IMG/VR virus record: IMGVR_UViG_3300041583_000090
Span: 1-56,021 of that record
Direction: 5' to 3' (one strand)
Length of the DNA stretch: 56,021 nucleotides
Source of the DNA: a virus
Lineage: Duplodnaviria > Caudoviricetes
In this document: piece after piece, positions 11,059-26,455 of the stretch
How positions within the stretch are numbered: position 1 is the first letter of the stretch
Layout of the letters: every line of letters starts with the position of its first letter
Notes under the pieces: generated by a model
The model's input: only the letters and a program-made list of their open reading frames with translations
Told to the model about the DNA's origin: nothing
Database searches by the model: none
Made by a program: the position numbers and the translations under genes

Positions 11059-11094
11059 TCCCCTCTAGATTGAGTTCTAGGGGGGATTCTTTTT
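11059..11094 (+). terminator. Intrinsic terminator after tail tube gene
   Basis: TCCCCTCTAGA-TTGAGT-TCTAGGGGGGA followed by TTCTTTTT. Confidence 0.85.
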
Positions 11095-11108
11095 GGTATA
11101 CTTATAGT

Positions 11109-11804
11109 ATGGCAACTAAAATATATGAGTATGGTTACATACATCTTGTTGACGGAACATCCGTATATATTGCCCCACTTAAAATAAAATATTTAAGAGA
11201 GTTCATGGACGCTTTCGAAAACGTCAAAGCATCAGCAACAGAAGAAGAGTCTACAACACACCTACTAGAGTGCGTAAGGATATCCATGCAGCAGTACTAT
11301 CCACAAATAGAAACCATATTTGATGTAGAAGACAGCATGGATATCAAGACCCTATACAGAATACTGGATCTGGCGGCGGGCATAAAGATTTCTAATAAAA
11401 AGAGTGAAGAGGACAAGGAGCTGCCAGAAAAAGCCAAGGAAGCTTCTGAAGACTCTTCTTGGGAAAAGCTAGATTTAGCAACCCTAGAGTCTGAGGTTTT
11501 TCAGCTGGGCATCTGGAAAGACTATGAAGACCTGGAGAGATACATGTCATTGCCAGAACTTATGGCAACCCTAAATTCTAAGAGAGAGTCTGACTATGCA
11601 GAAAAGAAGTTCTTAGCTGCCATACAGGGGGTCGACCTAGAAAAGAATTCTGGCAAAAGTAATGAGTGGGAGGAAATGAAGGCTAGGGTATTTAGCAAAG
11701 GTCAGGCTTCAAACGCAAACGACATTACCGCACTGCAGGGCGCTAACGCTCAAAAGGCAGGCTTCGGTATTGGAATGGGCATGAGTTACCAAAAAATAGA
11801 GTAG
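11109..11804 (+). CDS. Tail assembly chaperone, long (GT-like) form
   Basis: Between tail tube and TMP; ATG 11109 lies 6 nt after TGGTATACT; N-terminal ~100 aa similar to the next gene. Confidence 0.7.
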   Translation: MATKIYEYGYIHLVDGTSVYIAPLKIKYLREFMDAFENVKASATEEESTTHLLECVRISMQQYYPQIETIFDVEDSMDIKTLYRILDLAAGIKISNKKSEEDKELPEKAKEASEDSSWEKLDLATLESEVFQLGIWKDYEDLERYMSLPELMATLNSKRESDYAEKKFLAAIQGVDLEKNSGKSNEWEEMKARVFSKGQASNANDITALQGANAQKAGFGIGMGMSYQKIE

Positions 11805-11856
11805 CTTTGTGGTATAATTAAATTAACCAAAAATTGGTTTAAATCAGGAGGAATGA

Positions 11857-12177
11857 ATGGCTACGACCATAAACGAGACAAAAGAAATCACACTTATAGA
11901 CGGAACAAAGATTTCGGTTAGGCCACTAAAGATTTCACTACTTAGAAACTTTATGAAAAAGTTTGAGGGAATCTCCAAGGTTGCAGATGACAATGACAAG
12001 TCTATGGATATTCTTATGGAGTGTGTGCAGATTGCCATGGAACAGTACAAGCCAGAGCTAGCTGTGGATATAAAGGCTCTTGAGGATGTGTTAGACTTGC
12101 CTACAGTTTACAAGATTGTAGAAGAAGCATCCGGAATCGCTATCGGTGATTCTCTTGCAGGCAACCTTAGTCGCTAA
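11857..12177 (+). CDS. Tail assembly chaperone, short (G-like) form
   Basis: 106 aa, SD AGGAGG, own TGGTATAAT near 11810; paralogous to N-terminus of previous gene. Confidence 0.7.
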   Translation: MATTINETKEITLIDGTKISVRPLKISLLRNFMKKFEGISKVADDNDKSMDILMECVQIAMEQYKPELAVDIKALEDVLDLPTVYKIVEEASGIAIGDSLAGNLSR

Positions 12178-12207: not shown

Positions 12208-15200
12208 ATGGCTGATATTAACCCCAATATCGAAATCAATATTGACACGTCCAGTGCGATGGCGTCGATTAAGGCTCTTCAGAGTCAGATATCAGTCTTT
12301 CACCAGTCTCTTCGTGCATCTGGAGATGCATCCAGTATTCAAAAGTCAAACAACTATTCTAAAAACCTTGTAAACTCTATCAATGCCACAGGCAAGTTTT
12401 CTGCCTCTCTTGCAACGGTAGCAAAAGATACAAACACTTTCTCTAATGCATTAGAGCGCAACAAGCTTTCCATGGCAGAAACCTTTAAGTATGGAGCAGC
12501 ATCAAGCGGTAAGTTTGGAAGACTCTTTAAGACAGAGTTTGCCACCATTGAAAAGGTTACAAGGGAAAGAGTAAAGACTCTTCAGACGCAATTCGTAAAA
12601 CTAGGCTCTGACGCTAACGGAGCCATTGAAACAATCAAGGTTAGACCTCTTCGACTTGACATGGATAGTCTAGCAACTCAGACTGCGATTAACTCTCAAA
12701 AGCAACAAATCTTTAACAAGTTACTTAAGCAGGGTTCTACAAATCTTCTAAACTTTGGTAAGAACACACAGTGGGCTGGTAGGCAGCTTATGGTTGGTTT
12801 CACATTACCTCTGGCAGTGTTTGGGACTGTAGCAGGAAAAACTTTCATGGAGATGGAAGAAGCCGTAATCAAGTTTAGGCGTGTTTACGGAGAGCTCAGC
12901 ACTACTGTTTCCGAGACAGACAGCATGGTCAACTCGATTGAGCAGCTGGCAAAAAGCTTTACCAAATATGGAATAGCTATAAAAGATACCATGAACCTAG
13001 CCGCCGACGCAGCGGCCATGGGAAAGATGGGGGCGGACTTAACAGCTCAGGTAGCGGAAGCTACAAGGCTAGCAGTTCTTGGTGGAGTTGACCAGGCTAA
13101 GGCTCTAGAGACCACAATCTCTTTGACGAATGCTTTGGGTGTTTCTACAGAAGACTTGGCCAGCAAGATAGACTTCCTGAACGCTGTAGAGAACCAGACG
13201 GTTACTGCCATTGAAGACCTTACAATAGCTATTCCGAAAGCTGGACCGATCATTCAGCAATTGGGTGGCAGCGTAGAAGATCTAGCCTTCTTCCTAACAG
13301 CCATGAAAGAGGGTGGAATTAACGCCTCTGAAGGAGCTAACGCTCTAAAGTCTGGTCTAGCGTCTTTGATTAACCCCGCAGGTAAAGCTGTAGAAATGCT
13401 TCAAGGCTTCGGTATTAATGTTAATGCCATTGTAGAGGGAAATGCAGGTAACGTCAAGAACACCGTAATAGAGTTTGCTCAAGCCCTAGATACGTTGGAT
13501 CCACTAAACAGAGCAAGAGCTATCGAACAAATGTTCGGTAAGTTTCAGTTTGCCCGTATCTCAACCTTATTCAAAAACGTTGTTGACGAGGGTACTCAGG
13601 CAGGAAGAGTCTTACAGCTAACAAGAGCGACTACAGAAGAGTTAGCGATCCTGTCTCAACGAGAGCTGCAGCGCGTAGAAGACTCCCCTGGATACAAGTT
13701 TAAAAAGCAGATAGAGGACATTAAAAATGAGCTAGTTCCTCTGGGACGAGAGTTTCTGAAGCTAATAACCCCAATTATTGAATTTGCAAGTGGCCTTCTT
13801 AAGCAATTCAATAGCATGGACCAGGGAGTAAAAACCTTTGTTATGGGGCTCATAGGAGTCTTAGGACTCATAGCTCCTACTGTAATCATGTCGATCGGTC
13901 TTTTAGCTAACGGCTTTGCAAATATTATCAAGGGCTTCGGTATGGTCAATACCCTATTTGGCAGGATAGCAGGAGTATCAACCAGCGCAGCTGGAGCCAT
14001 GAACTACTTTACCCAAGAGCAATTGGAAGCCGCCGCCGTGGGAGCTTCCCTTGGTCAGATTCACTCTAACCTGGTTCAGGTGTTCTCTCTTGAGAAGGGC
14101 GCAGTAAATGCCTTGGCCGTAGCTTACAGACAAGCCGCAGCAGCAGCAGGAATTTTTGCATCTGTCCCAATGGTTCCTAGAGTATCTTCTCCTATCATTA
14201 CAAAATCTTCAACAGGAAGAAGAGCTTCTTCCCCAGGAGGGGTTCTGCCTCCGACCATACCGGGATATGCCAAGGGAATCTTAAGTCTACCTGGCCGAAA
14301 GGGTGCTGGAGATATTCTTCCAGCAATGCTAGCTCCGGGCGAAGCGGTCATTCCTGCGAAACAGTCTCAGAAGTATTCTGCGTTCCTACAAGCCATCATG
14401 AACGATGAGGTCCCAGGTTTTGCTAAGGGCGTCATGCTCGGGATGCCAGGATCTGGAAAATCCACTTCAAAAAATAGGGATGCTGGACAGCAAGTTTATG
14501 AGAGTTTCCTCCAGAGCAGCTACAGAAACGTTCCTCCAACAAACTATGGCCACCAGCTTTCACCAACATCTGGACACAGCTTTCCTATCTTTGGTCTTGG
14601 CGGAGTGTACATGGCTCCAGACGGGAAAAAAGTTTTCGTAAAGCCAGTAGTAGACGAAAACTCGGCAAACGCAGAGATGCGAGGAACACAGATTGCAAGA
14701 CAGGTTCACGGACTAAAAGCTCCAGAACAAAAAATTACTGTCATCGCTGACCCTAATGACCCAACCAGAACAAGAAGATTCTTGGCCCTAGAATCTAAAC
14801 TTGACTCAACCTTTATAAACAATGACCCCATGGCTTTGTTCAACGAGCCTCAATACTTTCAGCAACTAGTTGCATCTCTTTTGCGTGTAGACAAAGACCT
14901 TTCAGCAGGAAATGTGTTCGGCAACACCGTGGCTGATGTTGGTCCAGCTGGGGTTTTCAAGAGGGCATCGGGAATAAGAGCCTTCGAACCTAACCTTCCA
15001 TCAATGGAAGAGCAAGCTACAATAAACCTTCTAGGAATTAAAGGTGGAGCAAAGCGGGCATTTGCAGAGTCAACACTAGGCCTGATGGCAGGGATGACTC
15101 CACAACAGTATCACCAAAAGATGATTACTGAAATACAGCAAGTTCTTCCACTGCTAAAGAAAACTGTTGCTGGATTTGGATTAACGAATCCTCAAGAAGC

Positions 15201-18200
15201 AGACAGCTATCAGAATATGATCAAGAGACTTGAGTCTGGCTTGGGAGTAAACTGGTCAAGGTTCCATACCATGCACTCTGCTGTAAAAGTAGCCAAGCCA
15301 AGGCAGTCTACGAAACCAATTCCAGGCTTTGCAGACGGAGTCTTAAGTGTTCCAGGACCAAAGGGAGCAGGAGATGTTATTCCTGCAATGCTTTCTCCTG
15401 GAGAAGCTGTAATCCCTGCAGATAAGGCAAAGAAGTATCGTGGTTTTATAAGCTCTCTAATCGCCGGAAACGTTCCTGGATTTGAGCTAGGTACAGGAAA
15501 TGTGGGCGGAGCACCACAAAGGCTCAACGAAATCATGAGCTTCGTAGATCCAAGAAGAAGGTCTGCTACCGCAAGCTCGGGAATAATAGACCAGGCTGGA
15601 GGGAACTCTAAGGCTTTGGCTTCAGATCTTGCAGAGGCTGGAGTTTCTGCTAAAAACGCTATGAAGATTCTTTCCGAAGCAGCTGACAAGGCAAAGATGG
15701 GACTAGAGGAATTTAACTCTTACGTCTCCCTTGTCAAGAAATCTACCGCAGACGCTCCGAAAAACAAGCAGGGGCTCGTTCAGAATAGTCAGAAGCTGGT
15801 ATCGGACGTCCGGTCTAATTCTGGATTTAACCCAAAGAACCAGGGGGGCTCCTTTACTCATGTTGGTTCTGGAACTGAGCTCTCAGCCGGAGAAATCCTA
15901 AAAAGATCTGGTTCTGGCGACCTAAAACTTTCCCCAGGCCAAGCCAAGAACATTCAGTCTATGGACCCATCAAAGTTGGTTGGGGTCAAGTCCGGACTGG
16001 GGCTGTCCAATTTTGATCAAGAGACTAATAGGCAGCTTGACAAAGGCGGAGCAGATGTTAGCAGATTCTCCGAGGCCTTTGACGAGGCAGGATTAGAAAA
16101 ATGGAATGATTCAATAAGGTTTGGCGGGGGTAAGGTTGAAGACCTGGCTGGCCAAGCTCAGACATTGGACCAAGAATTTAGGAAACTAATATCGTCTTTG
16201 CCAGAGGGAACAAAAGTTTTCGATACAGATTCAAAGAGGCAGGACTATGAATCTGCTACAGGTAAAACGGGTGCCAGCGTTGAAAGCATGTATGGCACTG
16301 CGAGAGGCCAAGCTAAGGCTAAGGGTGCATCCAATCTGGCAGGAGTTATGGACACAGCACAGGCAACGCCAACAGAAATTCGTGACACGGGAACAAGTCC
16401 TGGTAAAAAACGTAGGGCACTCGGTCCAAAGATGGCAGAGTTACAGGTAACCCCAGCAAAAGATTCTATCAGTGATACTTCCATGTACACAGACAAAACA
16501 ATATCCGAAATGGAAGCTAGGGGGCAAGACCTTTACACTTTAGCAAGAGACAGGAATAGCCCACACAGACAAGCGGGCCCTGACGGGGAAGATGATGCCA
16601 AAGCTTATAACAAAGGATTTAACTCCAGCTCAGCTAAGGGACGATCCACTCCTCCTCCAATTCCTGAGGCTTCCGAAAAGCTAAAACAGTCTTCGACATT
16701 ACCAGACTCATTCCACGCCGCAATGGGTGCTTCACAATTTGAGCCTCCTAAAGAAGCTAAGAAAGAAATCAAGAGTGCCATCGGCGGAATGTTTAGAGAG
16801 ATGTCAGGCTCCGTAAAGAACCAGGCAAAGACTAAAGCTAAAGAGCTTGGCGAAAAAATGATCATGCCATTCGCTAAGCATCTTGCAAAGGGCACAGGCA
16901 ATATTCTTGTTAGCGAATATCAAAAAGAAAACGTTAACTACGACTCCGACACGGGGGTTACTACAAGTCAAGAGACAGGTCAAGTCCTATCTGACGAAGC
17001 TGGCTTTGACGCAGCTAACATAGCTACAGATGAACAGGGAAATCCTATCCTGACTCAAAATGGAGACCCTATGACCAGAGAGGCCTATGGCAAGGGTATA
17101 AAGAAACAAGCTTCGGCAATGAAGCGCCAAAGAATGGCAGGGAAAGCTTTTGGAGCCCTCTCAGTGGCCACTATGGGTGCTGGCATGATGTCTGGCCAAG
17201 AGGGTCCTGTAGGAGATGTCGCAAGGCAGGTTATGCCAATACTAGGTGCCTTGGCTATGATTGGTCCAATGCTTCTTGCACTAGCAGCACCTATCGCAAT
17301 ACTCGTGGGTGTTGTAGGTCTGGTTGCCTTTGGTCTGTTCAAGTATAACCAAGAACTTAATAAAGTCAGAAAAGAGTCTAGAGAGCTTGGGGAGTCCCTA
17401 GCTTCTGGCTCCAAGGCTATGGATAGGTTTGCACAATTTGCGGGAACTGTTTCTCCTACAGAGATAATGAACCAGAGAAGAGCTGGTTTAGGAACTCAAG
17501 TAACCGAGGTCCTAGGTAAAAGCGAATTTGCATCTAACTTTATAGCTAGCGACCAGGGTAAAGAGCTTGTTAAAACCGTAGAAGACGGATTAAAGACTTT
17601 GGGCAGATCAGATACAATGTCTAGAGTCTCTAATCAGTTAGCGATGGCTGTTGCCACGGGGATTCTAACTCAAGAGCAGGCCTCGAACATAGCCCTAGAG
17701 CTTGGAAGAACCCTAGAAGACTTTAGCTTTACCATGGGCGTAGTCGGAGAGCTTCAAGATCTTTTGGGTCCGAACGGAGAAAAGCTTCTAGACGGAGAAC
17801 CCATAGATTTGTTTATCTCAATGTCAAAGAGCAGCGCAAAGTCTTTTTCCAATACAGTAAAGGGGGCCCTAGAAAGTCTAAGCTCTGACGAAGGCTGGAT
17901 GAGCGCATTTGGCTTCGGAGAAGAGGCCAAGATTTCGTTTACGGCTGGTGCCATCACTGGTTTCTTTGAAGAGCAGCAAATGCAGCTGGACGGACTGGCA
18001 GTTGCTCAGCAAAAGTCAATAGACAAGATCCTGGAAGAGGCAAGAGCCCTAGAAGCTTCGGGTAAAGTCCAACAGGCTAATGCAAAATTTGCAGAAGCAG
18101 AGCTTTTGAGAGACAGTCAGCTTTCCGACAGAGTCTTAATGCAAAAAGAATATAGCTCTGCTCTAGAGGAAACCCTTGGCCTTCTGGATGCTGGCGACAG

Positions 18201-21200
18201 CAAATACGCCAATATGAGCGTTGCTCAGATTCAAGAAGATATACTTAGCCAAGACAGATTTGGAACTGTTTCTCCGGAAGATGCCCTAGGGCGTGCTGAA
18301 AGAATATTCGAGAACGATGGAGCAATCCTTGGAGACATAGACAAATACGCCCAAAGAACATTAGAGTCTATGACACAAGGCATTAAGGATAGGTTTGCAG
18401 AGGCTGACGAGTTCACAAAGAAAATGATAACCGGTGCTCTGAGCTCAATATCTTCTGGATCTGGACTTACCGTAAGGGCAAAGTTGTTGCTAACTTCTGC
18501 AATTGGATCTGGTGCCTTAGAACCAAAACAAATCGCAATGCTCGTAGACATGTTTGACCCAGATGTAGAAGAAGACGCAAAGCAATTAGAGATTATTGCA
18601 AACGTTGGCCTGTCTCTAGGTCAAGGCGGCATGCAACAAGCAGTCGTCGCAATCGACAGTCTCGTAAAGGACATCGTAAATGAAGCAGAAAGAAAGAAAA
18701 AAGCAGTAGACTTATTAAGCTTTATTGATCTGCAAGTAAAAAAGAGCCCAACAATGGCAAATCAAATTCTTGATTTGGTTTCAATGCTTGGCACTTACTC
18801 TGACCAGGTTGGTGGAGAAAATGTCATAGACTATATCGTTAAGCTAGACGAGAAGTCAATGAAAACCATGATGTCGAAACTGTCAAAGATGCAAAGACTT
18901 GTCGACAGAGCAACAGATCCAATAACAGTTGAGACACTAATTGAGCAAAAGGTAATCACAGACAAGTCAGCAATTGCTGCCTTTAAGGGTGATCAAGAGT
19001 ACTTCCAGCAGCTAGATCCCGTAAGTCAATTCCTTTACGTTCAAACTTTTCTTGCCGTGATTGGGACCATTACCGACGCCGAAGCCATTGCAAGTCTAAA
19101 AACAAAAGGAGTCGCCCAAGAGGGCGAATCTAGAACTATCTCTGGCCCTAAAGGTCGAGGATCAAGGACCCTGGCAAGTTATTCTCAACAACAGATAGAT
19201 GACTCAAGGGCTTCGATCGGCGCCGGAATTGCAGAAAGTGTGACAGATATCGTTGGTTCCTTTACCGGCGACAAAGGCACTAAAGAAGGAGCTGGCGGAG
19301 GGGGGTCTAAGTCGGACCCATTCGAAAACATTCTTAATAGATTAAAGCAAGTTCGAGATGCATCTATCAATGCAGCCGGAGGTGTTAAGGAGCTCATGAA
19401 ATTCCTTGGCGGCAAAAAGAGTATAACAATCTTTGACGGCATGGATCAGCAGATGCTTCTTAAGGGATACAACTCAGAATTCAGAAGCTTTGTAACTAGT
19501 CTCGATGAGGCAGCCAGAGGAGAGTTTGCTACATTCGAAAAAGGAGTCCTTAAAGTAACAGCAGCTGGAAAGGCAATGAATAAAGCCTTCTCAGAAGCAA
19601 CTCTCGGAGACTACCAGATTAGCCTGTCCCAGGGGCTTGCGGATGTAAACATGCAAATCAGGGCCATGACAAAGCTTACAGAAGCTGGAATGTCAAACAA
19701 AGATGCCTTCGAAGTTCTTGCAGATGCAAACTTAGCGTATGCTATTTCTATGGCGGCCACTACAGAAGAGGTTCAGAAGCTAATTAAAGATTTTAATGCT
19801 CTAACAACCGCAAAGAAAAAGCTTGCTAACTCAACAGTTGAGGGCATGGAAGCCGAAGTGTCCGAAGCCTTCTCTAAGATAAATGAGTTTTTCTCTGCTA
19901 AGGAGCAAGCGGTAACGCTCAAGTTTGAGGCAGATACTAAGTCTTTGACAAACGTTACAGACGGAGTCATTGCTCTTGCTCAAAAAGAGATTCAGGACTA
20001 CCAGTACACTATTGACGACCTTAGCTACGAGCTAGATCTTTTGGTGGAAAAAGAAACAGAGATTAACGACAAATACGATAAAAGAATTAATGCTTTAGAA
20101 AAGGTCCAGGAGATAAACCAATCCATCCTCGACCAGCAGAGTAGCCAGCTGAGTGTTGCGGAAGCTCTTTCCTCAGGAGACATAGCAGCAGCCGCTCGAG
20201 CAGTTCGGGAGCTTAGGTCCAAGCAAGCCTCTTCCAGAAAAGAATCATTCTCTAAAGACCTAGACCTCTCTCGTGAAAGGGAACTCGAGTCTCTTAGATC
20301 AACCAGCGGTAAGTCTAGGATTCAGCTTGAAAGAGAAATGAAGGACATCCAGGCACAGATTGCAATAATTGAGGAAACTCGATTAGAACCAGCTCAGAAG
20401 CTCCTGTCAAGTCTTGAAAGGGCCAGAGACGTAGCCTTGGAGGCTATTGGAGAGAATGGATACCTAGGAAAGACTAAAGCCGAGTGGGCTTTGGTTGAAA
20501 ACGGAGTAAGGCTTGCCAAGGTTGAGGCCGAGGGCTATAAAAAAGCTATCCTTGACGCACTAGACTTAATGGAAAAACTAAGGCTTGGGTACGCTGAAGG
20601 CACCAAAAAGGAAGAGTCTCCAGAATCTGGTTTACCAAAAGTAAAGACATCAGTATTCCAGGCCTCGCCCGTAAGCGTAGATCGCCCGACAGCAGAAAAG
20701 GCTGTCGCCTCCGCCATAAAATCTGGATCAGCCTCAGACCCCCTAAACTTTGCCAATCAAATTAAGAGTGCCGTTTTAGATAACCGCGCCGAGGCGGTTG
20801 CAATACGACAGGGAGTTGCTGCAGGAACAGCAACAGCTGCACAGAAGGCTACGCTAAAACAACTAGAAAAAACCAACATAGGCCTTATGACAAAATCTGG
20901 ATTAAAGTTTGCCAAGGGTGGGTTAGTTCCTAAATACTTTATGTCTGGTGGAACAGTCAAAGGCTACGCCTTCGGAGGTCTGGCTAGGGGAACAGACACC
21001 GTGCCAGCAATGCTAACCCCCGGAGAATTTGTTGTAAAGAGGAGTGCTGTAAATAGTTACGGGGTAGACAAGCTAAAGGCTATTAATAATGGACAAGCAC
21101 AAAGTCCTAATTCAGTGTATAATTATAGTCTAACAGTTAATACACAGAACGGCTCCAACCCTGATGATATAGCTAGAACAGTTATTTCAAGCCTAAAGAG

Positions 21201-21237
21201 GGTGGAGTCTCAAAGAATTAGGAGTAGTCGGTACTAA
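12208..21237 (+). CDS. Tape measure protein with inserted cargo domains
   Basis: 3009 aa after tail chaperones; TP901-type core ('GINASEGANALKSGL', 'AIEQMFGK'), hydrophobic segments, C-terminal 'FAKGG...GTDTVPAMLTPGEFVV'. Confidence 0.93.
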   Translation: MADINPNIEINIDTSSAMASIKALQSQISVFHQSLRASGDASSIQKSNNYSKNLVNSINATGKFSASLATVAKDTNTFSNALERNKLSMAETFKYGAASSGKFGRLFKTEFATIEKVTRERVKTLQTQFVKLGSDANGAIETIKVRPLRLDMDSLATQTAINSQKQQIFNKLLKQGSTNLLNFGKNTQWAGRQLMVGFTLPLAVFGTVAGKTFMEMEEAVIKFRRVYGELSTTVSETDSMVNSIEQLAKSFTKYGIAIKDTMNLAADAAAMGKMGADLTAQVAEATRLAVLGGVDQAKALETTISLTNALGVSTEDLASKIDFLNAVENQTVTAIEDLTIAIPKAGPIIQQLGGSVEDLAFFLTAMKEGGINASEGANALKSGLASLINPAGKAVEMLQGFGINVNAIVEGNAGNVKNTVIEFAQALDTLDPLNRARAIEQMFGKFQFARISTLFKNVVDEGTQAGRVLQLTRATTEELAILSQRELQRVEDSPGYKFKKQIEDIKNELVPLGREFLKLITPIIEFASGLLKQFNSMDQGVKTFVMGLIGVLGLIAPTVIMSIGLLANGFANIIKGFGMVNTLFGRIAGVSTSAAGAMNYFTQEQLEAAAVGASLGQIHSNLVQVFSLEKGAVNALAVAYRQAAAAAGIFASVPMVPRVSSPIITKSSTGRRASSPGGVLPPTIPGYAKGILSLPGRKGAGDILPAMLAPGEAVIPAKQSQKYSAFLQAIMNDEVPGFAKGVMLGMPGSGKSTSKNRDAGQQVYESFLQSSYRNVPPTNYGHQLSPTSGHSFPIFGLGGVYMAPDGKKVFVKPVVDENSANAEMRGTQIARQVHGLKAPEQKITVIADPNDPTRTRRFLALESKLDSTFINNDPMALFNEPQYFQQLVASLLRVDKDLSAGNVFGNTVADVGPAGVFKRASGIRAFEPNLPSMEEQATINLLGIKGGAKRAFAESTLGLMAGMTPQQYHQKMITEIQQVLPLLKKTVAGFGLTNPQEADSYQNMIKRLESGLGVNWSRFHTMHSAVKVAKPRQSTKPIPGFADGVLSVPGPKGAGDVIPAMLSPGEAVIPADKAKKYRGFISSLIAGNVPGFELGTGNVGGAPQRLNEIMSFVDPRRRSATASSGIIDQAGGNSKALASDLAEAGVSAKNAMKILSEAADKAKMGLEEFNSYVSLVKKSTADAPKNKQGLVQNSQKLVSDVRSNSGFNPKNQGGSFTHVGSGTELSAGEILKRSGSGDLKLSPGQAKNIQSMDPSKLVGVKSGLGLSNFDQETNRQLDKGGADVSRFSEAFDEAGLEKWNDSIRFGGGKVEDLAGQAQTLDQEFRKLISSLPEGTKVFDTDSKRQDYESATGKTGASVESMYGTARGQAKAKGASNLAGVMDTAQATPTEIRDTGTSPGKKRRALGPKMAELQVTPAKDSISDTSMYTDKTISEMEARGQDLYTLARDRNSPHRQAGPDGEDDAKAYNKGFNSSSAKGRSTPPPIPEASEKLKQSSTLPDSFHAAMGASQFEPPKEAKKEIKSAIGGMFREMSGSVKNQAKTKAKELGEKMIMPFAKHLAKGTGNILVSEYQKENVNYDSDTGVTTSQETGQVLSDEAGFDAANIATDEQGNPILTQNGDPMTREAYGKGIKKQASAMKRQRMAGKAFGALSVATMGAGMMSGQEGPVGDVARQVMPILGALAMIGPMLLALAAPIAILVGVVGLVAFGLFKYNQELNKVRKESRELGESLASGSKAMDRFAQFAGTVSPTEIMNQRRAGLGTQVTEVLGKSEFASNFIASDQGKELVKTVEDGLKTLGRSDTMSRVSNQLAMAVATGILTQEQASNIALELGRTLEDFSFTMGVVGELQDLLGPNGEKLLDGEPIDLFISMSKSSAKSFSNTVKGALESLSSDEGWMSAFGFGEEAKISFTAGAITGFFEEQQMQLDGLAVAQQKSIDKILEEARALEASGKVQQANAKFAEAELLRDSQLSDRVLMQKEYSSALEETLGLLDAGDSKYANMSVAQIQEDILSQDRFGTVSPEDALGRAERIFENDGAILGDIDKYAQRTLESMTQGIKDRFAEADEFTKKMITGALSSISSGSGLTVRAKLLLTSAIGSGALEPKQIAMLVDMFDPDVEEDAKQLEIIANVGLSLGQGGMQQAVVAIDSLVKDIVNEAERKKKAVDLLSFIDLQVKKSPTMANQILDLVSMLGTYSDQVGGENVIDYIVKLDEKSMKTMMSKLSKMQRLVDRATDPITVETLIEQKVITDKSAIAAFKGDQEYFQQLDPVSQFLYVQTFLAVIGTITDAEAIASLKTKGVAQEGESRTISGPKGRGSRTLASYSQQQIDDSRASIGAGIAESVTDIVGSFTGDKGTKEGAGGGGSKSDPFENILNRLKQVRDASINAAGGVKELMKFLGGKKSITIFDGMDQQMLLKGYNSEFRSFVTSLDEAARGEFATFEKGVLKVTAAGKAMNKAFSEATLGDYQISLSQGLADVNMQIRAMTKLTEAGMSNKDAFEVLADANLAYAISMAATTEEVQKLIKDFNALTTAKKKLANSTVEGMEAEVSEAFSKINEFFSAKEQAVTLKFEADTKSLTNVTDGVIALAQKEIQDYQYTIDDLSYELDLLVEKETEINDKYDKRINALEKVQEINQSILDQQSSQLSVAEALSSGDIAAAARAVRELRSKQASSRKESFSKDLDLSRERELESLRSTSGKSRIQLEREMKDIQAQIAIIEETRLEPAQKLLSSLERARDVALEAIGENGYLGKTKAEWALVENGVRLAKVEAEGYKKAILDALDLMEKLRLGYAEGTKKEESPESGLPKVKTSVFQASPVSVDRPTAEKAVASAIKSGSASDPLNFANQIKSAVLDNRAEAVAIRQGVAAGTATAAQKATLKQLEKTNIGLMTKSGLKFAKGGLVPKYFMSGGTVKGYAFGGLARGTDTVPAMLTPGEFVVKRSAVNSYGVDKLKAINNGQAQSPNSVYNYSLTVNTQNGSNPDDIARTVISSLKRVESQRIRSSRY
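14260..14430 (+). repeat. TMP internal ~57-aa repeat, copy 1
   Basis: PGYAKGILSLPGRKGAGDILPAMLAPGEAVIPAKQSQKYSAFLQAIMNDEVPGFAKG. Confidence 0.9.
15322..15492 (+). repeat. TMP internal ~57-aa repeat, copy 2
   Basis: PGFADGVLSVPGPKGAGDVIPAMLSPGEAVIPADKAKKYRGFISSLIAGNVPGFELG. Confidence 0.9.
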
Positions 21238-21863
21238 TGGCAACCTCAGCTTACATGAGCAACAGAAGTAAGTACGGCCGACCACAGGCCATGCTCTGGG
21301 CAGAGAACCCTGGAAGAATAGAGGCAGGGGCCTACATACCTAACGGATACGAGGTGGGGTATGACAACGAAGAAATCTCAGACCTTACCCAGTTAAACCA
21401 GTTTTTAATCTTGTCGGACCACAATCGGTCATCCCTCGAGTTTAGCATAGATAGAATAGAGCAAAGAGAGAGAATGGTTAACGGCAGAATGAGGTCATAC
21501 CATATTGCTGATAAACTGCAGGCTTCTTTATCCTGGAGCATGTTACCTTCTAGGTCTTTTAGGGACTCCCCCTCATTCTCAGAAACAGGAATTGCAAATT
21601 ACTCTACCGATGATCGTTACACTATAGACGGTGGTGCGGGAGGAGTTAGCTTGCTCTCCTGGTATGAGTCACACCCCGGACCTTTCTGGGTTTATTTGGC
21701 ATACGACAAGTTCAACAAAGATGGAGTTGAAGATTACTCCAAGTTGGCAGAGTATAACCAGGTTGTTGAGATGTACATCTCAGATTTTTCGTATAGCGTA
21801 GTAAAGCGAGGAACGAGCAATCACGATTTCTGGGATATTTCGGTATCTCTAGAAGAGGTATAA
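21237..21863 (+). CDS. Putative distal tail protein
   Basis: 208 aa directly after TMP; 'ERMVNGRMRSY', 'LSWSMLP', 'WDISVSLEEV'. Confidence 0.65.
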   Translation: MATSAYMSNRSKYGRPQAMLWAENPGRIEAGAYIPNGYEVGYDNEEISDLTQLNQFLILSDHNRSSLEFSIDRIEQRERMVNGRMRSYHIADKLQASLSWSMLPSRSFRDSPSFSETGIANYSTDDRYTIDGGAGGVSLLSWYESHPGPFWVYLAYDKFNKDGVEDYSKLAEYNQVVEMYISDFSYSVVKRGTSNHDFWDISVSLEEV

Positions 21864-24800
21864 TGTTTTTAAACGATGAACTAAATAATCACCTCTTAAC
21901 CTCTCCAACAGTAAAGAGCAACTCTAAGATAATTGTAGAGTGGAACCTTAATGCACACGACAACATATCCAAGATCGGGAACTACCGCTATCGACCACTG
22001 GAGGGGCCATCATCAGAGTTAGGGTACCTTCCTTCCTTCTTTGACGCAAACGATGAAGGTGGTTTTTACACGGGGGCAACAGGCTCGGATGTAGTTCTTG
22101 ACGGAGGCATCGATGAAGATGGAACGCCTCTCTTGCTACAGCAGCCCAAGCAGAAAGAAAAGCTTCTCTATTCTTTAGAGGACTGCTTTGCAAGGTTTAG
22201 GCCAAGGTCTGGAATCAACAAGGTTCGTTTTGGAATTACAGAGTTTGTTCATAATGCAAATCCTGATATGGCCAGAAGGCCAAGGTACTATATGTCACAC
22301 AAGGATGATAAGTTTAAGTACTGGTCGTCTTATCGTATAGAGAATGACGTAGAGTATGGAATAGCTAACGCGTCTCCACTTGGGATTAATCATATTAATG
22401 ACGCTGCACCTTTTGTTATTTACGAAGAGCCTGTAGCCACGAATAAGATAGTGGTAAAGGTTCAGACTAACGTAGGAACCATAAAGTCAGAGAGAGTGCT
22501 TAATATTTCTGGCGAAACTGGTGACCCACTCTTTGGAGATGAGAATAAAACTACTCCTTCAGACTGGGGAATAGATGTCTTGGTCAATGATCAATGGCAG
22601 AACGTGATTAACTTTTTCCCAGAAAGCACTAGAGCAGACGGCTCCCCCGTTATGGGACCAGATGGTTACCTAGAGATCTCGTACGGTCTGATCATACCCA
22701 AAAGGTACCAAGAAACTTTTAATTTTAACTATGTGTTATCCTCTTACACGGGCTTACCTAGCTCAGGCTTTGAGGGCGAGGCTTTTCTGGTCAAGGAGTC
22801 AGACTTAGATAAAGGGCTTTATTATATTTGGATAAACAATGGGTACGAGCAGTTTACCCCAGAGTACGGGTGGAAGCTTTCTGAACAGGAGGCTTCTCCA
22901 CAGTCAGAGTTTATTTCAAATATAGGCAATCCCGATTCGTTTGCTGTTCCGAATGAAACCTCTTTACAATTCAGAGAGTTTCAGTATATCTCTGGAATAA
23001 GACTTGCGGTCAGGAGAATGAACAAATTTAATTCGGTACTAGATCTAATAGAGATCTCTCCTAGGTTATGTGTAGACATAACAGATATAACAAATAGTTA
23101 CAGCGTATCAAAGATAGCGTCTGACTTGGGTAACACGGGGCTTCCCGTAGGACAGTTGCTCGCCTCCGTAGGCTCCTTAGAACTCTTTGACCCAGAGCAA
23201 GCTTTTAATAAAAGTAACGAGAAAGCTATCGTCCCCTTTAGCTCAATAAAGAACATGCAAGTAAGGATATATGATGTTATCTCTTATCAGCAAGACCTTT
23301 CTTCTAACCGTAAAAACATTTTTTATGTACCAATAAAAACAATGTACGCAGATTCATTCCCTGAAATATCTTCGGACACAAGGTCAGTATCTTTAGCTCT
23401 TAGAGATTTATACTTTTATTTCGAGTCTCTTCCAGCACCAGATATACTGCTTACCAATATATCCCTGTCCTCAGCAGTCTCAACACTGCTAGATTACATA
23501 GGGTTCTCTAACTATGTATTCAAAAGGTTGCCACAGGAAAGCGAAGATGTTATACCCTTTTTCTACTGTAAGTCAGACAAGACTGTTGCAGAGGTTCTCC
23601 AAGATCTAGCTGTCTCAACTCAAAGCGCGATGTTCTTTGACGAGAGCAACAACTTTATTGTGATGAGTAAAAACTATATGATACCATCATCTGCAGAGAG
23701 GCCTACGGATATGACCCTTCTAGGGGCAGAGGTCTCAGATCAGACAGAGGAAGAGATTCAAGAAGCAGCTGATTTTGGCATAGTTACTCCAGCTAATTTG
23801 CCTAACATTATTTCTATTTCATCTCAGAACGACTCTATTTTTAATGATGGAAAGATAGCTTATAAATCCCTGTATATTCAAAAGAGCCAGGCCAACTCCT
23901 CCCAATCATACAAGCTAGACTCTAGTAAGAGTTGGGTATACAAGCCGGTTCTTCTTTGGGAGGCAGCGGGGGAAGAGGCCTCGAAAGCCCGGAACGAGCA
24001 GATATCTACACAAAATGCATATAGCCTGACAGCAATACCTCTAAAATCAGATTTATCAAACTCTGTACCGCATGTAAGAAATGGAGTAGTGGTTTCTAAT
24101 ATCCTAGACCTAGGAGAAGCTGTTTACTGGCTTGGCCGTTACAACGGATACTTCTACGCCGCAGGAGAAATCATAAGGTTTGACGCTGTAGAATACAGTA
24201 TACCTAACATATCAGAATCAATCTGGCTAACAAGCATAGATGACTACCAGAACTATTTTTCTAAAATATCTTTTGGCGGCAAGATGTACCCCACTGGCAG
24301 GGTACGAATTTTTTCAGAGCCGAACTACAAAAACATTAATGACAGTTTGGTCTTGGTTGAGGGTGCTGTTTCCAAGCATGGTCGCGGCCAATTCGGCACT
24401 GCGATTACCAGCCATTATGCTGGGATAGATCTTTCTTGGACGGATGGATCTAGAATCAATGGTATCGGGATGAATTCTAAGTTCTTATTTGACAGTAGCG
24501 GGGAATCGGAAATAGAGTCTGCAGAAAGCCTCCCGCCAGACATAAGAGCAGTCTACAACAACATCCTAATCGCTAAGTCAGACATCAAGCAGCTCTATGA
24601 GAACATTAGCTCTTTGATCATAGGCGAACTTAGCACACCTATTGGGGGGGTGAACCAAGCTGTTTTGAGTCTACGTTCCCAGATTAATATAAAAGAAATT
24701 TTTGTAAAGTCCAAGATGTTAGAGTTAAAGTCATATATTGAAACATCTTCAAAGTACCCCAGCTCTTCCTCAGCTCTGTCTCAGGCTAGACGTACCCAAG

Positions 24801-26455
24801 TTACTGGCAAGATTAAAAACTTTATGGCATACTCTCATTCTTCAGAGAATCCAGAAAGCTCTTCCCTGTCAACAGATACCGAGATGGTTCAGGCTTCTGC
24901 TCTGATCATGGATGGGGCTAGTTCAACCGACCCCAACTACTCTGCCATAAATCACATAACCTATGCCTTTTCATCCCAAACAACAATTCCTGGACCTGGC
25001 ATATCTGCTATCAGAGACACCCTTCACACTCATTTTGGAACTAGAATGAGGATTATCGGTAGGGTGTCAGCTTCAAGCGAATCTGCTCAAGAAGCTAGCG
25101 GGGCAATGACATATGTCACGGTAGAGACGACATCTCCCGAGGATAAGGCAACCATAACAGGAGGCAGCGGAGGAATAGCTGGATTGCTTAACAGCAAAAC
25201 AGGAGAGGGGTATTATTTTGAGATAGCGGCGTTAGACTCTCTTAATATAGACAAGTACTCTGCTTCAAATATGTTTTTCTACAAAATTATTTCGAGTGGC
25301 TCAGACCAAGAGTCATCATCATTGCCTCAGCTTTTGTGGAAAGGTGTTTCAGATATTCTAGTAGACGGTGGAGATTTTGCTGGACAAAGCAGAGTCTTTG
25401 CACAAGAAAATCAAACAGTGTATGATCTTGCTTTCGAGTACGTTGAAAATATCGATGGAACTAGGACGTTCTTCCTTTATTTAAATGGAACACAGATAGC
25501 AACAGTTGTTGACACATCTCCAATTGTTGCTGGAAACTCCTCAGCATTGTTTATTCGGGGAACCTCGAAATGTATGTTTGAGAATATTTACAGCATGTCA
25601 AATAACTACGCGGACAGCCCATCATCAAAGCTGGATCCAGTAGTTAGTTCTGCCTTCGGCGTCGAGGACTTGACGATAAACTCCTCGTTTTCAAAGTATG
25701 CCATAAGCGGACTTGTCCAATCGACATACTTATCATCAATTGGTCCATCTAATGTTCCGAAGTATAACATATACTATGACGAGTTTGGAACTATAATGAG
25801 AGAGGCCGCTTACCTGAACGTCAAGTATGACAAAGCCTTCCCAGCTCTTTATTCTAGGATCATTCCATCTGCTAGCAAGATTCGAACATACTGCGTGTCA
25901 TCCTACTACGGAAGTCCCTATGGTGCAGAGTTCTTGGTCTTTAACGCTACTGATACAGTCATTAGCCTAGACTCAAGTACAAACTCAGCCCTTAGAATTC
26001 AGGGCATAGCCTTCACCCAAGAGTCTGGAAACGAGCTGACTGTTGACGACTTCTTTAATAAAAAGAGTGATCTTTCAAACCCTACAATAGAAGGCGGGGT
26101 AGTCGTTTCCTCACCATTATATTCTAAGGAAAAGTTCTTGAATATAAGGAACAGCAGATCTACATACGGAAGGCAAGAGTTTACCATAGACGCTCCGTAT
26201 ATACAAAGTAGAGACACTGCAAACTCTATGATGTCCTGGCTTGCCGATAAAGTTATGGTGCCAAGAAAGTCCTTGGGGCTAAGTGTATTCTCTATCCCAA
26301 CATTGCAGCTAGGAGACATCGTTAGTATAAACTATAGCTCAAATGAAATCGATCAGGTTGCAGAGAGTGACCGTTTTGTTGTTTACCAAATAGACTATGC
26401 CAGGTCTAGCGGATCTGTAGAAATGTCTGTATACTTAAGTGAGGTGAAGGCTTAA
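21863..26455 (+). CDS. Putative tail tip / baseplate hub protein
   Basis: 1530 aa; hub-like 'VAEVLQDLAVSTQSAMFFDE' and 'PTLQLGDIVSINY'. Confidence 0.7.
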   Translation: MFLNDELNNHLLTSPTVKSNSKIIVEWNLNAHDNISKIGNYRYRPLEGPSSELGYLPSFFDANDEGGFYTGATGSDVVLDGGIDEDGTPLLLQQPKQKEKLLYSLEDCFARFRPRSGINKVRFGITEFVHNANPDMARRPRYYMSHKDDKFKYWSSYRIENDVEYGIANASPLGINHINDAAPFVIYEEPVATNKIVVKVQTNVGTIKSERVLNISGETGDPLFGDENKTTPSDWGIDVLVNDQWQNVINFFPESTRADGSPVMGPDGYLEISYGLIIPKRYQETFNFNYVLSSYTGLPSSGFEGEAFLVKESDLDKGLYYIWINNGYEQFTPEYGWKLSEQEASPQSEFISNIGNPDSFAVPNETSLQFREFQYISGIRLAVRRMNKFNSVLDLIEISPRLCVDITDITNSYSVSKIASDLGNTGLPVGQLLASVGSLELFDPEQAFNKSNEKAIVPFSSIKNMQVRIYDVISYQQDLSSNRKNIFYVPIKTMYADSFPEISSDTRSVSLALRDLYFYFESLPAPDILLTNISLSSAVSTLLDYIGFSNYVFKRLPQESEDVIPFFYCKSDKTVAEVLQDLAVSTQSAMFFDESNNFIVMSKNYMIPSSAERPTDMTLLGAEVSDQTEEEIQEAADFGIVTPANLPNIISISSQNDSIFNDGKIAYKSLYIQKSQANSSQSYKLDSSKSWVYKPVLLWEAAGEEASKARNEQISTQNAYSLTAIPLKSDLSNSVPHVRNGVVVSNILDLGEAVYWLGRYNGYFYAAGEIIRFDAVEYSIPNISESIWLTSIDDYQNYFSKISFGGKMYPTGRVRIFSEPNYKNINDSLVLVEGAVSKHGRGQFGTAITSHYAGIDLSWTDGSRINGIGMNSKFLFDSSGESEIESAESLPPDIRAVYNNILIAKSDIKQLYENISSLIIGELSTPIGGVNQAVLSLRSQINIKEIFVKSKMLELKSYIETSSKYPSSSSALSQARRTQVTGKIKNFMAYSHSSENPESSSLSTDTEMVQASALIMDGASSTDPNYSAINHITYAFSSQTTIPGPGISAIRDTLHTHFGTRMRIIGRVSASSESAQEASGAMTYVTVETTSPEDKATITGGSGGIAGLLNSKTGEGYYFEIAALDSLNIDKYSASNMFFYKIISSGSDQESSSLPQLLWKGVSDILVDGGDFAGQSRVFAQENQTVYDLAFEYVENIDGTRTFFLYLNGTQIATVVDTSPIVAGNSSALFIRGTSKCMFENIYSMSNNYADSPSSKLDPVVSSAFGVEDLTINSSFSKYAISGLVQSTYLSSIGPSNVPKYNIYYDEFGTIMREAAYLNVKYDKAFPALYSRIIPSASKIRTYCVSSYYGSPYGAEFLVFNATDTVISLDSSTNSALRIQGIAFTQESGNELTVDDFFNKKSDLSNPTIEGGVVVSSPLYSKEKFLNIRNSRSTYGRQEFTIDAPYIQSRDTANSMMSWLADKVMVPRKSLGLSVFSIPTLQLGDIVSINYSSNEIDQVAESDRFVVYQIDYARSSGSVEMSVYLSEVKA

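Follow-up and report, generated by a model that had tools for sequence, protein, structure and literature searches.

A Swappable, Probably Kinase-like Cassette in the Tape Measure Protein of an Uncultured Actinobacterial Phage

In the giant tape measure protein (TMP) of an uncultured actinobacterial phage, a domain that follows closely on the conserved N-terminal core and hydrophobic stretch 1 is a cassette. What is new here is that this cassette is bracketed by two copies of a TMP repeat of about 60 aa. It has been gained and lost several times, and in some related phages its slot holds a DUF3626-family module instead. The domain is probably kinase-like, a reading that is supported but not proven by sequence comparison. 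More specifically, we consider it about an even bet (probability near 0.5) that aa ~785–1035 make up a phosphotransferase domain that belongs to the protein-kinase-like superfamily, is highly divergent and comes closest to the HipA/PI3-PI4-kinase-like branch, and that this swappable cassette would be injected and phosphorylate a host target.

Results

The window, i.e., the whole stretch of 56,021 nucleotides analysed (IMG/VR record IMGVR_UViG_3300041583_000090), belongs to a phage that has genes for head, replication and tail. Ten PHROG tape-measure families match the N-terminal part of its TMP (about aa 8–650), and the N-terminal 680 aa are about 30% identical to the TMPs of Streptomyces and Gordonia phages. 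The second of the two genes 5' of the TMP gene matches phrog_1932, 'tail assembly chaperone' (E 3e-4), and phrog_10359, a minor tail protein family, is matched (E 1.3e-61) in the tail-tip genes downstream of the TMP gene. The features are collected in Table 1.

Table 1. Coordinates of the TMP gene, its neighbours and the elements of the cassette in the window.
Feature	Position	Strand	Remarks
Two tail-assembly-chaperone-like genes, just upstream of TMP	11070..12177	+	phrog_10504 in both; second also phrog_1932
TMP gene, P0001, 3009 aa	12208..21237	+	One uninterrupted ORF; PF10145 and PHROG TMP families
PhageMin_Tail (PF10145) core, aa 247–444	12946..13539	+	Pfam match, E 8.6e-22
Hydrophobic stretch 1, aa 540–571	13825..13920	+	Kyte-Doolittle 19-aa mean up to 2.36
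Repeat copy 1, aa 681–746 (...GAGDILPAMLAPGEAVIPA...VPGF), left border of cassette	14248..14445	+	
Kinase-like cassette domain, aa 742–1038	14431..15321	+	Invariant catalytic-type residues; HipA_2/HipA_C best profile matches
Gly-rich loop GLGGVY, aa 796–801	14593..14610	+	G799 105/105, Y801 101/105
K812 (VFVK), candidate ATP-anchoring lysine	14641..14643	+	105/105
E823 (AlAE), candidate helix-C glutamate	14674..14676	+	105/105
Catalytic-loop-like D895-K-D897-L-S-A-G-N902	14890..14913	+	D897 104/105, N902 105/105, D895 99/105
D910-V-G912, DFG-like candidate metal-binding motif	14935..14943	+	D910 105/105, G912 102/105
Repeat copy 2, aa 1035–1100, right border of cassette	15310..15507	+	
Hydrophobic stretch 2, aa 1674–1714	17227..17349	+	Kyte-Doolittle mean up to 2.71
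C-terminal copy of repeat core (D..PAMLTPGEFVV), aa 2905–2970	20920..21117	+	36% identity to copy 1
Tail-tip genes downstream of TMP: 208 aa and 1530 aa minor tail protein	21237..26455	+	phrog_10359

The original prediction described the domain as an insert between two TMP repeats. This is borne out, with PAMLAPGEAVIP at aa 705–716 and PAMLSPGEAVIP at aa 1059–1070, and is extended by relatives that have one repeat and no domain. The two copies share 52% of residues over 66 aa; their DNA is identical at only 123 of 198 positions, and thus the duplication is not recent. A weaker third copy lies near the C-terminus of the TMP (aa 2933–2943). By a strict pattern, a repeat copy occurs no more than 150 aa from the C-terminus in 41 of the 105 representatives introduced below. 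To follow the slot, we used 70 close relatives, i.e., TMP ORFs of at least 1400 aa with a core 71–99% identical to that of the window TMP. The domain is present in 29 and absent from 41. In the relatives lacking it there is only one repeat, and the two repeats of the window TMP both align to it; therefore, the domain is a true cassette. Its presence on the core tree requires at least seven gains or losses.

In 7 of the 41 domain-lacking relatives, the slot is filled by another module, which we call module B. Using hhalign, we matched module B to DUF3626, the SopF-family ADP-ribosyltransferase family, at 95.4% (P 1.8e-8, 173 columns, four actinobacterial DUF3626 proteins; controls at most 21.8). 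The Pfam DUF3626 model was found in two of the five module B members scanned, at 26.4 and 18.6 bits, both under the family cut-off of 27 bits. SopF, a holder of DUF3626, is described as an ADP-ribosyltransferase. One relative (L268) carries a CTP_transf_like (cytidylyltransferase-like) domain in the slot, scoring above the Pfam cut-off. One related TMP has a peptidoglycan-binding OmpA domain. Thus, the idea that the domain is one cargo of a shared delivery platform is better supported than expected, by the DUF3626/SopF-family module in seven relatives and the cytidylyltransferase-like domain in one.

The motifs of the domain lie at aa 796–801 (GLGGVY), 807–812 (KKVFVK), 835–840 (GLKAPE), 891–902 (LLRVDKDLSAGN) and 909–912 (ADVG). 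All motif residues are at the TMP positions originally claimed for them, those of E823, D897, N902 and D910 following from the motif positions. Conservation was assessed in 105 near-full-length domain copies, which represent clusters at 50% identity and go down to about 30% identity. It turned out that G799, K812, E823, N902 and D910 are identical in all of them, and in a 36-sequence alignment these make up five of the 10 invariant columns. D897 and L898 (104/105), G912 (102/105) and D895 (99/105, with N in the other six) are nearly invariant. The conservation expected for K812, E823, D897, N902 and D910 was therefore found in every copy, save one for D897. We found the domain in 350 proteins of TMP length and in 166 representatives of clusters, solely within TMPs or TMP fragments and never as a free enzyme. 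It is also the best conserved part of the TMP: across 113 close homologues its identity is 69–72%, as compared to 57–63% for the N-terminal core and 9–30% for aa 1101–2900, a contrast somewhat inflated by the choice of these homologues by similarity to the domain.

The domain of the window has no match in Pfam, NCBIfam or PHROGs, and searches of the PDB by sequence and by profile gave no relevant match to it. One of 36 domain members matched HipA_2 (E 0.016), amid equally weak unrelated matches. We compared the 105-sequence profile by hhalign with five kinase-type families from Actinomycetota genomes. With the whole domain, the top two families are HipA_2 (score 23.5–26.2, P 0.0085–0.024) and HipA_C (20.8–24.4, P 0.019–0.06). 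The nine domain controls (five reversed kinase profiles, SHMT halves and two other TMP regions) score 10.3–16.0. The corresponding probabilities are just 2–5%, and control scores for other families reach 23.7 (HipA_C versus its own reverse) and 26.0 (PI3K versus reversed APH). Pkinase, APH and the SCO1664/PI3_PI4 family gave no hhalign signal, nor did E. coli HipA when its sequence was used alone. Kinases could not be told from decoys by a generic count of coinciding conserved letters. When the lobes were compared separately, HipA_2 scored 25.9 for the N-lobes (P 5.8e-4) and 16.9 for the C-lobes (P 0.083), and HipA_C scored 20.2 (P 0.01) and 24.0 (P 0.0046), respectively. Four cross-lobe controls gave 11.2–13.3 and twelve unrelated ones at most 18.4. 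Accepted relatives score alike in this comparison: 23.7 for the N-lobes of HipA_2 and APH, 18.4 and 17.5 for HipA_C and APH.

The alignments are co-linear and place the conserved residues of the domain on functional residues of kinases. HipA_C 'GN.D.H.KN' falls on 'gDKDL...N' of the domain, with D on D897, H on S899 and N on N902. The remark that the usual His is Ser here is correct for this phage; it does not extend to the family, in which position 899 varies and holds S in 35, Q in 27, G in 20, A in 9 and K in 9 of the 105 copies. HipA_2 'YVlKF...LVAE...AR..gL.vP' aligns with 'VFVKP...AlAE...aR..GL.aP' and 'IDHGAaly' with 'aDvG.AGVF'. The Gly-rich loop is aligned to the Pkinase G-loop and to the 'SL.G.Q.K' loop of HipA_C. 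K812 is aligned to the VAIK lysine of Pkinase and to the lysines of 'YVlKF' (HipA_2) and 'IlKP' (HipA_C), and E823 to the glutamates of 'LVAE' (HipA_2) and 'NE' (HipA_C). In the low-scoring Pkinase alignment (203 columns), VAIK-K, HRD-D, N and DFG-D fall on K812, D897, N902 and D910, so that the catalytic-loop-like segment is in register with 'HRDIKP.N'.

The ESM-Atlas feature neighbours of a 234-aa homologue (P0251) are PI3_PI4_kinase (SCO1664 family, 0.86), HipA_C (0.86), HipA_2 (0.83) and LepB_N (0.83, twice). These are the only families named, and eight of the ten best family-bearing matches share a family or clan. All these scores are below 0.9, the trust level of the tool, and serve as leads only. 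Thus, all the evidence obtained here points to the HipA/PI3-PI4-kinase/LepB-like group that had been proposed; with modest hhalign scores and language-model scores under 0.9, none of it is decisive.

Discussion

For the cassette domain we infer the fold, catalytic activity, delivery, topology and target, and delivery is taken to lead into the host cytoplasm. The kinase would be built from a Gly-rich loop (G796–Y801), K812 to anchor ATP, paired with E823, a catalytic loop (D895-K-D897-L-x-x-x-N902) and D910-x-G912 to bind metal. The cassette is not part of the TMP ruler proper; in sister phages the slot is empty or holds a DUF3626/SopF-family ADP-ribosyltransferase-type or cytidylyltransferase-like module. 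The tail would hold the TMP with its cargo until infection, when both would be expelled. The hydrophobic stretches of the TMP may enter the cytoplasmic membrane, and the cassette would arrive on the cytoplasmic side. With the ATP available there, it would phosphorylate a protein, lipid or small molecule of the host ahead of phage gene expression. It counts against this reading that a folded domain of 300 aa should not fit the lumen of a siphovirus tail, so that the domain would have to travel unfolded. We count in favour of an injected kinase that the other slot cargo (DUF3626/SopF-family, CTP_transf_like) needs cytoplasmic co-substrates. The exchange of a probably kinase-like cassette for a toxin-type ADP-ribosyltransferase-family module or for nothing suggests that these phages deliver ready-made enzymes with the tail.

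It is somewhat unlikely that the domain is not kinase-like at all, i.e., that it has another fold and is a TMP module specific to this lineage, e.g., a channel, a plug, an unknown enzyme or an element for docking at the tip; the kinase pattern would then only be mimicked by its conserved G, K, E, D, N and D residues. The lack of a significant family or PDB match, hhalign scores at the upper edge of the control range, the failure of the letter count to tell kinases from decoys and the confinement to TMPs or their fragments would all fit such a module. However, HipA_2 and HipA_C match each of the lobes in the correct order and outscore the cross-lobe and unrelated controls, the catalytic loop is aligned residue for residue to HipA_C, and the unrelated language-model method points to the same clan. 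Moreover, a structural plug would not be missing from 41 of 70 close relatives. We regard as unlikely a domain that has a kinase-like fold, and so shares all the fold evidence, and is not an injected host-takeover kinase. It could work inside the producing cell on the TMP, its chaperones or tail assembly, carry out other ATP-dependent chemistry, or be a nucleotide-binding pseudokinase that works as a sensor or switch during ejection. The kinase-like fold is also used for AMPylation (SelO) and glutamylation (SidJ), and altered chemistry would agree with the lack of conservation of the His/Lys that HipA and protein kinases have beside the catalytic Asp. Against a pseudokinase stands the complete invariant set K, E, D, N and D, which is typical of active transferases. 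An exchangeable, dispensable effector fits better than an assembly factor, because 41 of 70 close relatives build a TMP without the domain and the slot, often empty, is shared with SopF-family and nucleotidyltransferase-like modules.

Very improbable is extracytoplasmic action of the cassette on the cell wall or the membrane surface at penetration, in the manner of TMP peptidoglycan hydrolase domains. The enzymatic TMP domains described in TM4, T5 Pb2 and phiIPLA35 degrade the wall, and the OmpA domain of the related TMP agrees with this role. However, the domain has no similarity to any lysin family in Pfam, PHROGs and further family scans, and its residue pattern and best matches are those of transferases that depend on nucleotides. 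NAD+ or NTPs, to our knowledge not available outside the membrane, are also required by the alternative cassettes.

Comparison with Known Systems

The best profile matches of the domain, in both lobes, are the HipA kinases (HipA_C, PF07804; HipA_2, PF20613), with which it shares the layout loop - hhhK - (8–11 residues) - AE - ..AR..GL..P - hinge - D-x4-N - D-x-G. Unlike HipA, which is a free protein of 250–440 aa, the domain forms part of a virion protein and is surrounded by no HipB-type partner or toxin-antitoxin setting. It also lacks the catalytic-loop His, its whole-domain match is not significant, and its N-to-D hairpin is shorter, with a spacing of 8 between N902 and D910, as compared to 13–18 in known kinases. 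The PI3/PI4-kinase-like SCO1664 family (PF00454) and LepB_N (PF18640; LepB is a lipid kinase) are close to the domain as language-model neighbours. The SCO1664 family has a clear relationship to HipA_2 (hhalign 93–96%), but has no direct hhalign signal with the domain (12.7–15.6), in which its D-R-H-x-x-N is absent.

The T4 Alt ADP-ribosyltransferase and the N4 virion RNA polymerase are separate proteins, packaged in the head and injected with the DNA. The cassette would likewise be a ready-made enzyme acting ahead of phage gene expression, but as a segment of the tail ruler protein. According to a review, virion-carried catalytic modules within TMPs include the Rpf-like motif of TM4, T5 Pb2 and the muramidase of phiIPLA35. 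These act on peptidoglycan outside the membrane, whereas the cassette and its slot-mates resemble nucleotide-dependent transferases; furthermore, the slot is exchangeable between close relatives. Module B, which matches the profile of DUF3626, is embedded in a TMP and is not a secreted effector. The original prediction mentioned ADP-ribosyltransferase domains from freshwater actinophages, and this was only half right: 24 freshwater phages are described as encoding VIP2-like ADP-ribosyltransferases, a 'Trojan horse' directed at grazers, in passages that do not mention TMPs (Kavagutti et al. 2019). By their description, the Sle1-type effectors of actinobacterial contractile injection systems are similar to the protein studied here, since they are TMP-related, modular, ejected and membrane-associated, with a variety of exchangeable functional domains (J Bacteriol 2026, PMC13277306). 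They are relatives of TMPs in cellular phage-tail-like particles, whereas here the cassette is carried by the TMP of a real phage.

Results

Tape measure protein of the phage and its probable host

The record belongs to an uncultured siphovirus-type phage (56 kb, IMG/VR class linear, completeness estimate 52), and the structural genes in the window encode portal, prohead protease, major head protein, Ig-domain tail protein and minor tail proteins. The long protein under study carries the PF10145 core at aa 247-444 (E 8.6e-22), and PHROG tape measure families span its aa ~8-650 (phrog_10030, E 1.7e-95). By both of these criteria it is a phage tape measure protein (TMP). Its gene lies between chaperone-like genes on the upstream side and a gene for a minor tail protein on the downstream side. 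The first 680 aa are ~30% identical to annotated Streptomyces and Gordonia phage TMPs (338 records), and the best matches among cultured phages are annotated actinophage TMPs. The two upstream genes look like duplicated chaperone-like genes, not like the usual G / G-T frameshift arrangement. The ORF at the start of the record, where the large terminase is expected, matched neither Pfam nor PHROG families at E up to 1e-3. The phage encodes both the large subunit (with an RNR_N domain) and the small subunit of class Ib ribonucleotide reductase. The positions of the features are collected in the table.

Features of the phage genome and of related TMPs (nucleotide positions in the window unless TMP residues are indicated)
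Feature	Position	Details
ORF at record start	2-2521	828 aa or longer, 5'-open; followed closely by a small ORF and the portal gene
Chaperone-like gene pair	11070-12177	both match phrog_10504, E 1.3e-16 and 4.1e-20
TMP gene	12208..21237	one ORF, 3009 aa
Hydrophobic stretches of TMP	aa 540-571 and aa 1674-1714	on either side of the kinase-like domain
Repeat copies in TMP	14248-14445, 15310-15507, 20920-21117	core D..PAML.PGE.V, ~60 aa
Pol III alpha (PHP, NTPase, finger, HhH domains), RecA, class Ib ribonucleotide reductase subunits	33409-37681 and 44135-47249	
Serine hydroxymethyltransferase (SHMT) gene	47249-48484	
tRNA cluster (Asn-GTT, Asp-GTC, Thr-TGT)	48737-49197	after the SHMT gene
Module B in loci L196, L200, L203, L205, L220, L222, L224	TMP aa ~717-1076 each	

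Identity between the phage SHMT and those of Micrococcales is 66-73% (best 80 of 598 confirmed stretches); most of the latter come from Microbacteriaceae, aquatic genera included. The similarity of this one gene indicates that the host is probably an actinobacterium. The hosts of the whole phage group are likely actinobacteria, possibly aquatic Microbacteriaceae. The G+C content of the window is 41-48%, which looks low beside most Microbacteriaceae.

Conservation and distribution of the kinase-like domain

The original prediction placed a kinase-like effector domain inside the TMP (aa 742-1038), and all of the motifs it named were found at their TMP residues. Conservation was assessed in 105 near-complete copies from cluster representatives. 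The putative catalytic residues proved to be almost fixed: K812, E823, N902 and D910, together with G799, are identical in all 105 copies, D897 and L898 in 104, G912 in 102 and D895 in 99. Their order is that of kinases (Gly-rich loop, strand-3 Lys, helix-C Glu, D-x4-N, D-x-G), with compatible spacing. The prediction also held that Ser replaces the usual His of the catalytic loop. This is true of S899 in this phage, but the position is variable across the copies (S 35, Q 27, G 20, A 9, K 9). The 'GG...DxD' pattern was considered as a Pol-beta-type nucleotidyltransferase motif and rejected, as its spacing of ~96 residues is far too long for that family. No other stretch of the TMP is as well conserved among 113 close homologues: the domain shows 69-72% identity, the core 57-63% and the greater part of the C-terminal two thirds 9-30%. 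This contrast is inflated, because the homologues were selected through the domain itself.

Among 1614 candidates, at least 350 TMP-length proteins match the domain (E up to 1e-3), with 67-100% identity among the 120 matches listed. The domain also occurs in 166 clusters at 50% identity from a library of 1.84 billion representatives, and for 133 of these the E value is 1e-30 or lower; most of the 150 library matches listed are very long proteins, and in the short ones the sequence begins or breaks off within the domain. A search for a stand-alone form among proteins of 143-546 aa returned only seven fragments, on contigs of 778-5101 bases. In these searches the domain is found only inside TMPs or in fragments at contig ends. 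None of 50,697 GenBank phage records contains it, and the group has no cultured member among GenBank phages. A search for it in prophages and hosts gave 62 pattern matches in genome contigs, none of them confirmed, and five aquatic Microbacteriaceae genomes gave no match; neither result is evidence of absence.

Exchange of modules between the flanking repeats

We surveyed the TMPs of 80 IMG/VR loci, all with a TMP core that shares 71-99% identity with that of this phage; near-duplicate loci were counted individually. Where the TMP ORF is at least 1400 aa long, the domain is present in 29 of 70 cases and absent in 41, and 36 of the latter have an ORF with a complete 3' end. In the domain-less TMPs, similarity to this TMP ends after aa ~741, and both repeats that flank the domain here (aa ~684-741 and ~1041-1095) align to a single repeat. 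The domain together with one repeat is thus inserted as a unit, with direct repeats on both sides. These two repeat copies share 52% protein identity and 123 of 198 DNA positions, so the duplication is old and has been maintained at the protein level. Related TMPs carry up to four copies of this repeat, often less than 150 aa from the C-terminus. The repeat could serve in docking, processing or recombination.

A FastTree phylogeny of the N-terminal 660 aa of the TMP (70 rows, 61 of them different) requires at least seven changes to explain the presence of the domain, versus a mean of 22.5 in shuffles (0 of 500 as low). The locus L193, whose TMP is a near-identical copy of that of this phage, groups with three TMPs with an empty slot (support 99), and in two cases a kinase-bearing TMP has as its sister a TMP that carries another module (supports 94 and 95).

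This other module, which we call module B, occurs in seven of the 80 loci and never together with the kinase-like domain. It lies between two repeats at the same slot. Pfam gave DUF3626 matches in two of the five members scanned, with 26.4 and 18.6 bits, both under the 27-bit cut-off. When six module B sequences were compared by hhalign with four actinobacterial DUF3626 proteins, the probability was 95.4% (P 1.8e-8, 173 columns), and controls scored up to 21.8. By profile similarity, module B is assigned to DUF3626, which is described as the domain conserved in SopF, an effector of Salmonella. A passage citing Xu et al. (2019) states that SopF ADP-ribosylates a V-ATPase subunit. The suggestion that the kinase-like domain is one cargo of a shared delivery platform is borne out to the extent that seven relatives hold a DUF3626/SopF-family module in its place.

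In one related TMP (L268:5262-6572, aa 725-1161) there is a full-length CTP_transf_like match (PF01467, 25.7 bits versus a cut-off of 21) between the repeat and a downstream kinase-like domain, so two nucleotide-dependent enzyme modules appear to stand in tandem. The further slot modules scanned gave no Pfam match, and PDB searches with two alternative cassettes gave none either.

Two more arrangements were observed in relatives. In many of them (L245, L253, L198 and similar loci) the kinase-like domain starts near aa 1000 and is preceded by an extra module of ~250 aa (aa ~720-990), which is 43% identical between L245 and L253 and has no Pfam match in these loci. A related TMP of 3892 aa (P0152) carries, at aa 2678-2771 and 3118-3156, an OmpA peptidoglycan-binding domain (E 1.7e-18) and a weak ABC1 atypical-kinase match (E 0.0034, below the cut-off), which is far from the main kinase-like domain of this TMP at 1242-1538.

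Relation of the domain to kinase families

Direct searches assigned the domain to no family. The window's copy (aa 742-1038) has no Pfam match, HipA_C and HipA_2 at their cut-offs included, and no PHROG match. In 36 alignment members Pfam gave a single HipA_2 match (E 0.016) amid unrelated weak ones, and NCBIfam gave nothing kinase-like. The PDB yielded no match to the sequence and nine to the profile at E up to 10, none of them a kinase domain; the rows named 'protein kinase C' were rejected, being chains of 137-194 residues matched at query positions 88-130. The single sequence of E. coli HipA did not match the domain profile.

The profile of the 105 copies was aligned by hhalign with family profiles built from Actinomycetota genomes (HipA_2, HipA_C, Pkinase, APH and SCO1664-type PI3_PI4). 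Reversed profiles and unrelated ones (two SHMT halves and two other TMP regions) served as controls. Over the whole domain HipA_2 scored 23.5-26.2 (P 0.0085-0.024, the best values, at a probability of 2-5%) and HipA_C 20.8-24.4 (P 0.019-0.06). Pkinase, APH and PI3_PI4 scored 12.7-17.6, not above the controls; the SCO1664-type set of nine proteins gave 12.7-15.6 (P 0.27-0.61). The domain's own controls scored 10.3-16.0. For scale, accepted distant pairs gave 21-25.5 (HipA_2-APH), 20-30 (HipA_C-APH) and 12.6-18.4 (HipA_2-Pkinase). Two comparisons that served as controls for other families came out at 23.7 and 26.0, and therefore the whole-domain score is not significant alone. Addition of 120 homologues hardly changed the HipA_2 score, because the added sequences were mostly close Streptomyces relatives. 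After a split of each profile at the hinge, HipA_2 gave 25.9 (P 5.8e-4) and 16.9 (P 0.083) for the matched lobes, and HipA_C 20.2 (P 0.01) and 24.0 (P 0.0046). The four mismatched-lobe comparisons gave 11.2-13.3, and twelve comparisons of domain lobes with unrelated profiles gave at most 18.4. A count of consensus-letter coincidences was dropped, since it did not separate kinases from decoys.

The alignments with HipA are co-linear and superpose the functional residues, including the loop before strand 2. In them 'VFVK' of the domain falls on 'YVlKF' (HipA_2) and 'IlKP' (HipA_C), 'AlAE...IaR..hGL.aP' on 'LVAE...lAR..gL.vP', the hinge 'aLES' on 'LvVeR', and 'aDvG.AGVF' on 'IDHGAaly'. The segment 'gDKDL...N' falls on 'GN.D.H.KN', with D897 as the catalytic Asp, S899 in place of the His and N902 as the Asn. 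The low-scoring Pkinase alignment (203 columns) also sets the VAIK-Lys, HRD-Asp, Asn and DFG-Asp on K812, D897, N902 and D910. In an ESM-Atlas feature search with a 234-aa homologue (P0251), the only named neighbours were PI3_PI4_kinase (SCO1664 family) at 0.86, HipA_C at 0.86, HipA_2 at 0.83 and LepB_N at 0.83 twice. Scores below 0.9, as all of these are, count as leads only; as leads, they point in the same direction as hhalign by a separate method.

The domain was predicted to have the layout of the HipA / PI3-PI4 / LepB-like group. The residue order and the co-linear HipA alignments agree with this, but membership in HipA or PI3/PI4 does not follow. HipA proteins have a D-x-H-x-x-N loop with a conserved His, where S899 stands here, and they are free toxins with an adjacent HipB-type antitoxin; the domain lies midway in an ORF of 3009 aa, and no HipA-type Pfam match was found elsewhere in the record. 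The loop of PI3/PI4 kinases (PF00454) is D-R-H-x-x-N, and the domain reads D-K-D-L-S-A-G-N; what speaks for this family is the language-model neighbours at 0.86. Since there is no His, no model match and no toxin-antitoxin setting, the domain is best called a putative new, TMP-restricted branch of the HipA/PI3-PI4 part of the kinase-like superfamily. We put the probability of a kinase-like fold at about 0.7, judging from sequence comparison, and that of an active transferase somewhat lower.

Discussion

The domain described here is conserved and exchangeable and has kinase-type invariant residues; the other modules in its slot come from NAD+- or NTP-using families. TMPs fill the tail lumen, exit at infection and help to form the passage through the envelope. 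HipA-type kinases act on translation factors, and LepB/PI-kinase types on lipids. In a review, in the part available, the TMP is described as a conduit. We suppose that the cassette would travel in the tail unfolded or loosely folded, because a globule of 300 aa should not fit the lumen, and would refold at the cytoplasmic face. There it would use ATP to modify a host target before phage gene expression. By analogy, the target could be either a translation factor or a lipid.

A wider reading is tentative, and we consider it rather unlikely as a whole: the slot may be a polymorphic bay for ready-made effectors that deliver a first strike, for counter-defence or takeover. A HipA/PI-kinase-like kinase, a SopF-family ADP-ribosyltransferase and a cytidylyltransferase-like enzyme would be inserted and removed by recombination at the repeats on either side and would ride in the tail within the ruler protein. 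The two hydrophobic stretches would tether them at the cytoplasmic face of the entry pore, where they would modify host targets only seconds after adsorption, earlier than DNA entry or gene expression. Such a bay would belong to a large group of uncultured actinophages. Bolder still is the idea that the kinase might be a lipid kinase acting on phosphatidylinositol and remodelling the membrane around the pore. To our knowledge, few bacteria other than actinobacteria make this lipid.

Phages are known to inject ready-made enzymes in the form of separate head proteins. Enzymes that are part of a TMP have so far been described, in the sources available in part, as wall hydrolases, that is, as wall-degrading aids to penetration. 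The modules found here are exchangeable and widespread, and by sequence the kinase-like, ADP-ribosyltransferase-family and nucleotidyltransferase-like ones look like transferases of the cytoplasmic type. In phage TMPs, neither a kinase-like domain nor a slot for exchangeable transferases was described in the literature we searched, judging mainly from titles and abstracts. The ADP-ribosyltransferases of freshwater phages mentioned in the original prediction are indeed reported and are VIP2-like (Kavagutti et al. 2019), but the passages available do not place them in TMPs.

The family lends itself to testing: five residues can be point-mutated, and sister phages whose slot is empty or holds another module are natural controls. 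Its ecological reach may be large, given the likely actinobacterial and possibly aquatic Microbacteriaceae hosts. If the modules are delivered active, the siphovirus tail would also be a protein-injection device with swappable warheads, and the TMP would be a new place for counter-defence and takeover functions that act before phage transcription. TMP-related proteins with exchangeable functional domains have been described, in the passages available, for actinobacterial contractile injection systems (2026, PMC13277306). With active delivery, the slot would have its parallel in polymorphic toxins and in the effectors of contractile injection systems.
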